A stretch of 43,336 nucleotides of DNA from a virus (lineage: Duplodnaviria; Heunggongvirae; Uroviricota; Caudoviricetes), in the IMG/VR virus record IMGVR_UViG_2554235189_000011, positions 1-43,336 of that record. One strand, 5' to 3'. How positions within the stretch are numbered: position 1 is the first letter of the stretch; each line of letters opens with the position of its first letter. The position numbers and the translations under genes are program-made. Under the pieces are notes generated by a model. The model ran no database searches, had not been told where the DNA came from, and saw nothing but the letters and a program-made list of their open reading frames with translations. Below are positions 41,061 through 43,336 of the stretch, piece after piece.

Positions 41061-41454
41061 CCTCTGAAAAGTGAATACTGAGTAGCGTTTAAGCGACCTT
41101 AGCTCTGCTGCAACATCAGCCCACAGGCACCAGACCAGGGGATTCATCCTGAAGAGACAGCGCAAGTGTATTGTGTTCACCGCTCATCAAAGACATCATG
41201 ATGAAATGATGATATTCCACATAAGAAAGAAGCATTTTTTAAACGCAGTGCGCTGAAGTATGGTTGGATAAAAAAGTCAATCTATTCAGGGAATACGGGG
41301 GTATTCTTTTCTTTCGACAATCAGGCCGTCGGCAAAATAAAATGATTTACATAATCGTTTCTGATGAATATCTTCTGCTCACATAAAAATAACACAATAA
41401 CTTTGAGATCGCAGATTCTTTTACTTTTACAGCATTCGTCCCCCCATTGTTGGG

Positions 41455-41640
41455 CAAATATAGATTGGGCCAGAGCACGAAAGTTAATACCACGTTTGCA
41501 CAGCTCCTCCAACAGCACGACAAGATGCCACATACTGCGCCCCAGTCGGTTCGGTTTACAGACTACCCGTGCGTCCACCGCCGATAATGTCCTGAGCAGT
41601 TTTTTCAGTCCGGACCTCCTGCCACGGTTTTACGTTGAAG
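41455..41640 (-). pseudogene. serine recombinase remnant homologous to the pin gene at 11896-12450
   Basis: Minus-strand ...KKLLRTLSAVDARVVCKPNRLGRSMWHLVVLLEELCKRGINFRAL...; N- and C-terminal parts absent. Confidence 0.65.
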
Positions 41641-41963
41641 AGGTAACCCTGAGCACGCAGTTCATCAGTCAGGCGTGGTGTACCGTAACCCTATTATTGA
41701 TGGGTAAGATCAAAAAAACTTTCAGGCAGCTAAGGAAAGTTGAACCAGACATTAGAATAAATATTTCAACCAATTACAGCACCAATTCAGACACCGCCAG
41801 CTCAACAAATAAATCAAGGGGTTACGTGAAAGCGTAGCCCATTTTTCTTTGGTAGTGGCAGCAAAATGGTTGTAGTGTAAAAAATAATCCCGTTTAATCA
41901 ATCAATAATACATATTGTTTCAATCTACGTTATTATCTCTTTGTAAAAATAGCCATTTATTAA

Positions 41964-42707
41964 TCATTGAAAACTGCTTTTAGAACTTGATACAACGGGA
42001 CTAGTCACAACAGGACTATTCTCAACGGGATCATCCTCAGAGTAACTATCATCAAAGTCATCATCCATAAATAAAATATCATCGAATGGTGCCACGCCCG
42101 TGATGAGTTTTATTTTATTATTACGATCAGTCAAGACTCCACTTAAACCGTTTTCGCTCACAGGTTTTAATGATTTTTCATTACTCTTGTTGTAAGCAGG
42201 CGCATTAAAAATACACGGAGTATCAAGATCAAACAATGACGTTCCCCAGTTCACATATTGAATATCATAGTTACTGAAGTTCTGTCCAGAAAAGAAGCAT
42301 CCCTTAAAATCCAATCCACCTAAATTATATAAACCATCCTCTTCTTTTTGGAGAGTAATGTTAATTTTGGCTATCTCCCGGACATCATCGCCATTTTTAT
42401 ATTTGAATACCGTTTCAAGATGTTCCCCACACAGTTTGACTTCTGGAAATAATTTGAAATCAAAGCCTATATTATTATGTATCAACGTAGATGAACAAAA
42501 GATGGAGAAAGCTTGCAGTGCTGAATTATAGCTTTCGATTTTATCCTGAGGCTGCGCTCTTGGTAAAAACTCATAGCAACATTCATAAAAATTAAGTAGA
42601 AACTCTGAAGACCTTCCATTTTTATCAAATAATATCCCCTTGAACTCATTCACAAACGCATCTTTTTTTTCTTGAATATCTATGGGGTGTTCCTTTGACT
42701 CTGACAA
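41964..42707 (-). CDS. hypothetical AT-rich protein, acidic/Ser-Pro-rich C-terminus; possibly 3' part of a disrupted gene
   Basis: 247-aa ORF, very low GC; loosely repeat-like middle. Confidence 0.5.
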   Translation of the reverse strand: MSESKEHPIDIQEKKDAFVNEFKGILFDKNGRSSEFLLNFYECCYEFLPRAQPQDKIESYNSALQAFSIFCSSTLIHNNIGFDFKLFPEVKLCGEHLETVFKYKNGDDVREIAKINITLQKEEDGLYNLGGLDFKGCFFSGQNFSNYDIQYVNWGTSLFDLDTPCIFNAPAYNKSNEKSLKPVSENGLSGVLTDRNNKIKLITGVAPFDDILFMDDDFDDSYSEDDPVENSPVVTSPVVSSSKSSFQ

Positions 42708-42874
42708 AGATGAAATCTCATCTATTTTTTTTCATATGAATTACGTGATTCCATACAGACATTTGGCGGCGTTTCTAAAATAACACTACGCGTACTACTT
42801 GGCTTAAGTAAACCAACATGAAAATCACTTTTTCTTATATTATCGAAAAGGTTCTGTTCATTTCTTTTAGCGCA

Positions 42875-43336
42875 TTAAAAAAACTGATCGGCATTATTTT
42901 TATTCGATAATTTTTTAGTTTCAGAAAACACATTTTCATTGTTTTCCAGCTTTAGTTTAATGAGAAGATTTTCCCAGACCTGCTTGCTTAAACATATTAC
43001 GTCAGGCTCACCAGAACTAACTAACTCGTGATTATTATTAAAGTGTACGTTGAATACCTTTAAGTTATTTTCACCAACTTCATATTTAATACGTTTTAAT
43101 TGTTCTCCAGCTCCCATAATGACAAAGGCGTTGCCTTCTTGATATATACATTCAGACATCATTTTTTGTAAAGTTTCAAGAGCACCGCGATACGTCTCTG
43201 ATGCAGCTTCCTTACAAATTAATTTTAAAATACTATGAGCTAGTAGCTCCATGTGTTTAGAAGATTTATTTTCATTATAACTTCCACTACCCAAAAATGC
43301 GCTAGCGTTAAATCCGTTGCTTTTACTAACTAACAT
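42875..43336 (-). CDS. hypothetical AT-rich protein; ATG at last bases of window
   Basis: 153-aa ORF; start at window edge so upstream extension cannot be excluded. Confidence 0.45.
   Translation of the reverse strand: MLVSKSNGFNASAFLGSGSYNENKSSKHMELLAHSILKLICKEAASETYRGALETLQKMMSECIYQEGNAFVIMGAGEQLKRIKYEVGENNLKVFNVHFNNNHELVSSGEPDVICLSKQVWENLLIKLKLENNENVFSETKKLSNKNNADQFF

Follow-up and report, generated by a model that had tools for sequence, protein, structure and literature searches.

An IS3-family element joins an e14/SfV-like prophage to the ypjA–pinH'–ypjB–ypjC segment of Escherichia coli

The right-hand end of the window, by which the whole analysed stretch of 43,336 nucleotides is meant, consists of an IS3-family insertion sequence followed by a segment (40612-43336) that is collinear with, and 96.3% identical to, positions 2782289-2785011 of Escherichia coli K-12 MG1655. 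The MG1655 counterpart carries ypjA, pinH (b2648), ypjB (b2649) and ypjC (b2650), followed by ileY, and the same order is given for K-12 in PMC10652928. The insertion sequence (39434-40611, plus strand; orfA 39398-39745, orfB 39865-40611) was recognised by Pfam matches to HTH_Tnp_1 in orfA and to rve/HTH_21 in orfB, and the identical sequence in strains FORC_042 and JNE132847 is labelled 'IS3 family transposase, programmed frameshift' in RefSeq. The element truncates a phage methylase gene on its left and ypjA on its other side, and is what joins the ypjA–ypjCB segment to the e14/SfV-like prophage. This junction lies on the Q/RusA/methylase side of the prophage, the tail-fibre/pinE end being 27 kb off, at 11.9-14.4 kb.

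From ypjA (ehaD), which encodes an adhesin-like autotransporter, a 5' fragment of the N-terminal ~147 codons is present (ypjA'; 40611-41051, minus strand), the remainder having been cut off by the insertion sequence. The fragment is collinear with K-12 ypjA, matches the Pfam AIDA repeat and the NCBIfam Ag43/O_hepto_targRPT models, and is designated 'adhesin-like autotransporter YpjA/EhaD, incomplete, missing C-terminus' by RefSeq in the same two strains. Between ypjA and the invertase remnant lies orf39 (41116-41235, minus strand), a conserved ORF of 39 codons for a hypothetical protein, annotated at this place in each of seven strains (WP_000927517.1 / WP_001120794.1 / WP_001131441.1) and returning no match in the family search. 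The pinH-type serine-invertase pseudogene itself (pinH'; 41459-41626, minus strand) is abutted at its 5' break by an 89-nt scrap of IS3 insF (41621-41707, minus strand), which corresponds to positions 528-615 of IS3A (78/89 nt, 88%, identical to the K-12 copy using blastn, E 6e-25) and whose translation, GYGTPRLTDELRAQGYLFNVK, matches Pfam HTH_21 with an E value of 0.002. A further stretch of 77 nt (41732-41808, plus strand) was aligned by blastn to the right end of the K-12 cryptic prophage CP4-57, beside psaA (76.6% identity over 77 nt, E 6e-11), and may possibly represent an old mobile-element end. The segment is completed by ypjCB (41964-43336, minus strand; 1373 nt), whose start codon coincides with the final three nucleotides of the window. 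Rfam, searched up to an E value of 1, yielded no RNA gene in 40500-43336, and neither tRNA nor tmRNA genes were detected in the window by ARAGORN.

Two very low-GC ORFs of 153 and 247 aa had been described here in the initial annotation as possibly one disrupted gene, and this description proved correct. The 153-aa ORF (42875-43336, minus strand; GC 0.32) carries DUF5507 (Pfam, E 6e-105) and is the N-terminal part of ypjCB, equivalent to K-12 ypjC, while the 247-aa ORF (41964-42707, minus strand; GC 0.355) carries DUF5508 (E 2e-167) and is the C-terminal part, equivalent to K-12 ypjB. The two ORFs are 167 nt apart, have an overall GC content of 34%, and match positions 1-153 and 227-465, respectively, of one NCBIfam model of 465 positions (NF050179, Ecoli_YpjCB), placing homology to both domains on one gene. 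The 50 codons between them align to intact alleles, and the gap is open in frame but for one TAA and one -1 frameshift. The first lesion is the premature TAA at codon 154 (E154*; 42875-42877, minus strand), which is GAA (Glu) in intact alleles, gene position 460 being G in ETEC1747 and K-12 and T in the window (G460T). The second is a run of eight A residues (42725-42732, minus strand; T8 on the strand shown) left by the loss of a C from GAAAACAAAATA at gene position 609, codon 203 (ΔC609), where the K-12, Shigella and ETEC1747 alleles carry AAAACAAAA. Both G460T and ΔC609 are among the 5 nt by which the window differs from the intact ETEC1747 allele (99.6% identity); nucleotide identity to K-12 ypjC plus ypjB is 97.9%. 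The window allele has no uninterrupted frame of ~449-491 codons, and its fragments score separately 300.6 and 545.3 bits against an NF050179 whole-protein cut-off of 650 bits. Judged by its reading frame, the gene in the window is a pseudogene of the YpjCB family, probably created recently in this lineage by E154* and the 1-nt deletion, and from the normal start it would yield at most a 153-aa N-terminal fragment. K-12 and S. flexneri have CAG changed to TAG at codon 161 instead, and ypjCB has been broken independently in at least two lineages.

DNA 99.9% identical to the segment is present in FORC_042 and JNE132847, where RefSeq annotates the IS3 transposase, ypjA', a hypothetical protein, a recombinase pseudogene, ypjCB ('frameshifted; internal stop') and tRNA-Ile, with ileY located ~750 bp past the position at which the window ends. 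The locus is already known, both as pinH/ypjB/ypjC in K-12 and as a recombinase pseudogene and frameshifted YpjCB gene in the NCBI pipeline. The order ileY–ypjCB–pinH'–orf39–ypjA is conserved in the window (with pinH', orf39 and ypjA' inside it), in K-12 and in five other strains, namely ETEC1747, O157:H7 SS52, AST262, GN04592 and KV7, all five of which have ypjCB intact as one gene. The intact products include WP_000961357.1 in ETEC1747 and WP_000906744.1 in O157:H7. A 2.7-kb query (40600-43336), which takes in ypjA and invertase sequence as well as ypjCB, matched 5328 of 5426 complete E. coli genomes, with at least 80% of the query covered in 2983. Searched alone, ypjCB was found in 3078 of the 5426 (57%), always chromosomal and in one copy each.

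The recombinase remnant had been described as homologous to the window's pin (pinE) and as reduced to an internal fragment, and both observations were reproduced. Positions 41471-41617 align without gaps and on the same strand with 12181-12327 of pin (124/147 nt, 84%, identical; blastn, E 6e-42), close to the slightly shorter intervals originally proposed (41480-41625 and 12200-12320), and this was the single significant match when 41200-41950 was compared with the rest of the window (runner-up E 0.025). The minus-strand frame, GLKKLLRTLSAVDARVVCKPNRLGRSMWHLVVLLEELCKRGINFRALAQSI, was matched by BLASTP to residues 42-94 of the 184 residues of PinE (39/53 identical, E 4e-22) and shows homology to the resolvase/invertase catalytic domain (Pfam Resolvase PF00239, positions 51-102 of 145, 29.2 bits against a cut-off of 23.3, E 1.1e-6). 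The N-terminal nucleophilic serine (~residue 9-10) is absent, homology starting at PinE residue 42 with the IS3 insF scrap upstream, and so is the C-terminal helix-turn-helix, homology stopping at PinE residue 94 (nucleotide position 41471) and the frame beyond being unrelated; accordingly, RefSeq labels the remnant 'recombinase family protein, missing N- and C-terminus' in FORC_042 and JNE132847. When crossover sites of the gix/hix/pix type were sought, AAACCNNGGTTT-type cores were located only at 12512, 14403 and 25537 and none in the 40.6-43.3 kb region, which also lacked any convincing pair of inverted repeats. The AAACCNNGGTTT-type sites elsewhere in the window flank a pinE-proximal invertible segment.

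With 53 internal codons only and no recombination sites, catalysis by pinH' is impossible, and a Din-family serine-invertase gene would have been destroyed at this locus long ago. The invertase is a pseudogene in all strains sampled, and lies between ypjCB and ypjA in MG1655 and in each of the six further strains examined, which do not have the prophage junction of the window. Since the fragment is no closer to the local pin (84%) than to the invertases of unrelated phages (about 82%), it is an old paralogue and not a local copy. The claim that it had been duplicated from the pin region is not supported, given this equidistance, the fixed site shared by K-12 and other strains and the abutting IS3 scrap.

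Intact YpjCB (449-491 aa) is predicted to be soluble and acidic. The word index contained 437 homologues, and among the 120 of these listed all were full-length and of the YpjCB type, every source named being either E. coli or an enterobacterium related to it. When 1.84 billion representative proteins were searched exhaustively with phmmer, only members or fragments of the YpjCB family were returned, plus one outside match (P0164, E 4e-4) to a BNR/Asp-box repeat protein that was rejected as spurious, and the GTDB species representatives with the protein were E. coli and Shigella only, plus two contaminant contigs. Nothing beyond DUF5507/DUF5508/YpjCB was found in Pfam, NCBIfam, PADLOC (which gave no defence-system match) or PDB sequences, no match was obtained in the fold search and no copy was detected by tblastn in 50,697 phage records; the PHROG family phrog_30093 (function not assigned) contains YpjCB. 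A sub-threshold match of variant P0121 to Pfam CTD4 (ABC-3C; E 8.5e-4) was discarded, being absent from all 12 family members checked, as was the idea that the N- and C-terminal domains, which have similar predicted secondary structure, arose from one another by duplication within the gene (hhalign probability 0.1%). AlphaFold2 prediction of the full-length intact protein using a 12-sequence alignment gave an unusable model (mean pLDDT 35.7). The 51-aa conserved block scored 13 bits against Pfam Pentapeptide PF00805 (cut-off 20.2; E 0.077). By eye, this block can be divided into seven A(D/N)LXX-like pentads.

YpjCB ORFs of 449-491 codons stay open across dS values of 0.1-0.2 and dN/dS is 0.3-0.7 in the C-terminal part, indicating that intact ypjCB is a real gene; the N-terminal half has a dN/dS close to 1, a value that relaxed constraint could explain without a working gene. 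On sequence grounds YpjCB is a fast-evolving orphan of E. coli and Shigella. The papers searched gave no function for ypjB, ypjC or pinH, only biofilm phenotypes of K-12 ΔypjC, in which colonisation of the biofilm by a pathogen was altered and biofilm cells were 3.5-fold more numerous (PMC3646849). In view of these phenotypes the 153-aa product, and YpjCB fragments generally, may keep some activity, and to state that nothing at the locus works is possibly too strong.

Taken together, the segment at 40612-43336 is almost certainly the known ypjA–pinH'–ypjB–ypjC segment that lies immediately downstream of the tRNA gene ileY in E. coli, an islet of DNA that was probably acquired horizontally, is now in decay and has no part left that works as a unit. 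Horizontal acquisition is suggested by three features, the low GC content, the adjoining tRNA gene and the mobile-element scraps. A search of the 12-kb K-12 region for an ileY-derived direct repeat, as expected where an island ends, was negative, and an att-type boundary was not demonstrable.

A functional reading of the intact protein has been considered alongside this one. YpjCB might be a fast-evolving E. coli/Shigella conflict or host-interaction protein, for example one that is non-classically secreted and contains a short pentapeptide-type β-helix, which K-12 with Shigella and the clade of the window switched off independently, in the manner of anti-virulence genes or genes that carry a cost; if so, the window would show one instance of an inactivation that selection has driven repeatedly. 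This reading is judged unlikely. Of the first 28 residues of YpjCB, 7 are Ser, 4 are Asn and 1 is acidic, and neither a Sec signal nor a transmembrane segment is present; this composition is suggestive at best of a secretion signal.

It is very unlikely that the segment represents a cargo (moron) end belonging to a second lambdoid prophage, with an invertase fragment copied from the window's pin and an AT-rich gene encoding a type III effector. The low GC (0.34), the E. coli-only distribution, the Ser/Asn-rich N-terminus, the acidic tail and rapid evolution of the protein, the nearby mobile-element scraps and the inclusion of YpjCB in phrog_30093 would fit such an origin. However, the locus has its fixed place by ileY in all strains sampled, K-12 included, whatever prophage adjoins and also where the prophage of the window does not lie beside it, and the junction is made by an IS3-family element on the phage Q/methylase side, so that the placement of the segment as tail-fibre-distal cargo could not be upheld. 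The pinH fragment is equidistant from local and foreign invertases, and the phage genomes searched by tblastn held 0 copies of the gene. The secreted effector suggested by the initial annotation likewise found no support, as no homology to a described type III effector family was detected with Pfam and NCBIfam at permissive thresholds and no fold was matched. The gene occupies one fixed chromosomal site, is shared by K-12 and 57% of complete genomes, and showed no link with a T3SS island or with exchangeable-effector loci of prophages. K-12 is non-pathogenic and is not known to have a LEE-type type III secretion system, and the presence of ypjCB there counts against an effector. The duplication and prophage-cargo parts of this explanation are largely refuted. 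That the A8 run (42725-42732) is a phase-variation (contingency) tract, with ypjCB only turned off and able to return through slipped-strand mispairing, is extremely unlikely. The frameshift does fall within a homopolymer of 8 nt, where one A gained would restore the frame, but the tract itself arose when a C was lost from AAAACAAAA, which K-12, S. flexneri and ETEC1747 keep interrupted (the other four intact alleles being in frame), so that it is not a conserved switch, and the TAA at codon 154 would end translation even with the frame restored.

As a decaying islet that is ordinary and annotated already, the locus matters little in itself. It illustrates that an invertase fragment and low GC beside a prophage need not signify phage cargo, the adjacency having been made here by an IS3-family element. 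Because YpjCB is a rapidly evolving orphan that at least two lineages have inactivated independently, the intact allele could justify a modest experimental look.

Compared with K-12 ypjC and ypjB, the window has the same gene with the same neighbours, likewise split into N- and C-terminal ORFs. The lesions differ, however, K-12 having one nonsense codon (161) and no frameshift and the window a nonsense codon (154) together with the 1-nt deletion at codon 203, which places the K-12 YpjB start (MESRNSY…) out of frame in the window. Pentapeptide-repeat type III effectors include PipB/PipB2 of Salmonella and the EspX family of E. coli. YpjCB resembles them in that its gene is AT-rich and its most conserved block can be written as seven pentads (YNLRG LDFKG CFFSG QNFSN YDIQY VNWGT SLFDV), but, unlike them, it has no detected homology to any effector family. 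There is no substantive difference between pinH' and MG1655 pinH, which is an internal invertase fragment in the same position between ypjB and ypjA and in the same orientation within a region that is 96% identical, the RefSeq spans of 168 nt here and 240 nt in K-12 differing in annotation only. With respect to the Din-family invertases (PinE of e14, PinQ, PinR, Gin, Hin and Cin), the remnant protein is 74% identical to PinE 42-94, but it lacks the catalytic serine region, the E-helix, the HTH domain and crossover sites, and therefore cannot act likewise. Intact members of the family invert tail-fibre segments of prophages, and PinQ and PinR have recently been linked to blocked phage adsorption (PMC12529663; bioRxiv 10.1101/2025.03.28.646004). 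The window's own pinE is evidently such an active enzyme, as its 1.9-kb segment is inverted relative to that of a 99.9%-identical prophage.

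The two AT-rich ORFs that the initial annotation had placed next to the invertase fragment were confirmed, both on the minus strand, at 42875-43336 (153 aa, GC 0.32; Pfam DUF5507, E 6e-105) and 41964-42707 (247 aa, GC 0.355; Pfam DUF5508, E 2e-167), and are separated by 167 nt. The suspicion that they constitute one disrupted gene was upheld: they are the N- and C-terminal parts of ypjCB, with the first covering positions 1-153 and the second 227-465 of the one 465-position NCBIfam model NF050179 ('Ecoli_YpjCB'), and the minus-strand frame starting from the ATG at 43336 runs on through the apparent gap, two lesions excepted. 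The first of these is a TAA at codon 154 (42875-42877, minus strand), which is GAA in intact alleles; at the second, the frame shifts by -1 within an A8 run (42725-42732, minus strand), where allele alignment placed GAAAACAAAATA in intact alleles against GAAAAAAAATA in the window, so one C has been lost. Five more strains spanning the allele range (ETEC1747, O157:H7 SS52, AST262, GN04592 and KV7) all carry ypjCB as one intact gene of 449-491 aa. The nearest intact allele, that of ETEC1747, differs from the window at only five nucleotides, two of which are the lesions, and the inactivation in the window lineage is therefore recent. In K-12 and one Shigella flexneri genome the gene is broken otherwise, by CAG→TAG at codon 161, and ypjCB has therefore been knocked out independently at least twice.

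The recombinase regions were compared using blastn, with 41200-41950 as query and the remainder of the window as target, which yielded one strong match: 41471-41617 aligned, ungapped and on the same strand, with 12181-12327 at 124/147 identities (84%; E 6e-42), the remaining hits being at noise level (E >= 0.025). The target lies within the intact minus-strand invertase gene at 11896-12450, which is pinE by the annotation of an identical prophage. The minus-strand translation of the fragment, GLKKLLRTLSAVDARVVCKPNRLGRSMWHLVVLLEELCKRGINFRALAQSI, aligned with residues 42-94 of the 184 of PinE (39/53 identical, E 4e-22) and with profile positions 51-102 of 145 of Pfam Resolvase (29.2 bits); it is therefore an internal fragment, as had been proposed, devoid of the N-terminus with its catalytic serine and of the C-terminus that binds DNA. 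Neither gix/hix-type crossover cores nor a convincing inverted-repeat pair were found near it.

Duplication of the remnant from the pin region, the origin first put forward for it, did not survive comparison with other invertases, since it is about as similar to the invertases that unrelated E. coli phages encode (approximately 82% identity, in a collection of 50,697 phage records) as to the window's pinE (84%), and it is fixed at the same locus in strains lacking the window's prophage junction. The remnant was thus not copied from the local pin. At its 5' break it borders directly on 89 nt of IS3 insF sequence at 88% identity (41621-41707, E 6e-25), which suggests that insertion-sequence activity destroyed the gene. 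A separate 77-nt stretch at 41732-41808 shares approximately 77% identity with the right end of the cryptic prophage CP4-57 of K-12, an end which there sits beside the psaA (ssrA-repeat) pseudogene; the stretch is possibly a relic of an older integrative-element end.

Nor is the locus prophage cargo, as had been supposed. The adjoining prophage (HK97-type head, Mu-like contractile tail, pinE, lambdoid Q/lysis genes) meets it at an IS3-family element (39434-40611) that has truncated both a phage methylase gene, on the prophage side, and ypjA, on the side of the locus, and this junction is at the phage's Q/RusA side, 27 kb from the tail-fibre/pinE end. In FORC_042 the same junction of IS and truncated ypjA adjoins a truncated portal gene instead, showing IS-associated rearrangement. 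The phage integrase (7053-8231) neighbours the pinE/tail-fibre end, from which 3.6 kb of unannotated ORFs separate it (window 7053-11900); this is the order expected in a circular phage genome, and the phage break lies instead in the methylase gene at the IS3-family element (window 39079-40611). The retained integrase order together with this break suggests that IS-mediated recombination, and not the phage's own integrase, brought the prophage to the site or rearranged it there. At the other end, window positions 1-348 match the end of an IS3-family element in JNE132847 at 96% identity, and the approximately 4 kb that follow (to 4420), with RecT- and YqaJ-type recombination genes and a DUF2528 gene, are missing from the otherwise near-identical JNE132847 prophage.

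A 1.9-kb tail-fibre segment (12512-14414) is inverted relative to this prophage, which is 99.9% identical elsewhere; the two alignments share 20 nt at either end (12512-12531 and 14395-14414), and both ends contain AAACNNNGGTTT-type crossover cores. From this inversion the window's pinE is evidently alive, in contrast to the pinH remnant, and together with 12512-14414 it appears to form a working host-range switch driven by the invertase.

The suggestion of a secreted effector was not supported. A word-indexed search returned 437 YpjCB homologues; all of the 120 listed were full-length and YpjCB-type, and every source named among them was E. coli or a related enterobacterium. phmmer, run exhaustively over 1.84 billion representative proteins, found only family members and fragments, apart from one repeat protein that was rejected as spurious. 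Among GTDB species representatives the family was confined to E. coli and Shigella, plus two contigs (2.8 kb of a 'Planococcaceae' MAG and 291 nt of Arthrobacter agilis) with ypjCB sequence at 98-99% identity, almost certainly contamination in public records. No match was found in PDB sequences, PADLOC or the 50,697 phage records, and the PHROGs entry is labelled only 'unknown function'. The protein lacks a Sec signal and transmembrane segments, its N-terminus is rich in Ser and Asn, and its tail is acidic. The block conserved best resembles a run of seven pentapeptide repeats, but its Pfam score is below threshold (13 vs 20.2 bits). AlphaFold2 modelling failed for the full-length protein (pLDDT 35.7) and was moderate for the C-terminal ORF (pLDDT 58), for which no credible PDB neighbour was identified. 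The sole functional data found were biofilm phenotypes of K-12 ΔypjC (PMC3646849).

Pairwise Nei-Gojobori estimates among ypjCB alleles gave dN/dS values of 0.5-0.95 for the whole gene, about 1 or above for the N-terminal half and 0.3-0.7 for the C-terminal part. As long ORFs stay open at dS 0.1-0.2, we infer that ypjCB is a real, fast-evolving gene; that it encodes a host-interaction or conflict protein under recurrent selected loss seems to us quite unlikely. Across E. coli, the nucleotide identity of the alleles ranges over 80-100%, a spread far above that of typical core genes, and the gene is mosaic, the window and K-12 being nearly identical in the N-terminal half with dS 0.09 in the C-terminal part.

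The locus was placed using megablast against 5,426 complete E. coli genomes. A 2.7-kb query (40600-43336) matched 5,328 of these, 2,983 at a query coverage of at least 80%; since it takes in ypjA and invertase sequence, many of its partial hits are to paralogues. ypjCB alone was present in 3,078, always as a single chromosomal copy. FORC_042 and JNE132847 carry 99.9%-identical DNA, annotated in RefSeq as an IS3-family transposase, incomplete ypjA/ehaD, a 39-aa hypothetical protein, a recombinase family protein missing its N- and C-terminus, ypjCB (frameshifted; internal stop) and, approximately 750 bp beyond the window end, tRNA-Ile. The order ileY–ypjCB–recombinase pseudogene–orf39–ypjA recurs in each of the five further strains. 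The 39-codon ORF (orf39, 41116-41235), for which no family match was found, is annotated at this spot in all seven strains inspected and may be a real small protein or a leader of ypjA. The K-12 MG1655 counterpart is collinear and 96.3% identical, its annotation reading, in order, ypjA (b2647), pinH (b2648, pseudogene), ypjB (b2649), ypjC (b2650) and the tRNA gene ileY, a list also given in PMC10652928. The feature is thus E. coli's pinH/ypjCB locus, which is already annotated; in the window ypjCB has become a pseudogene through lesions specific to the lineage, and an IS element has truncated ypjA.
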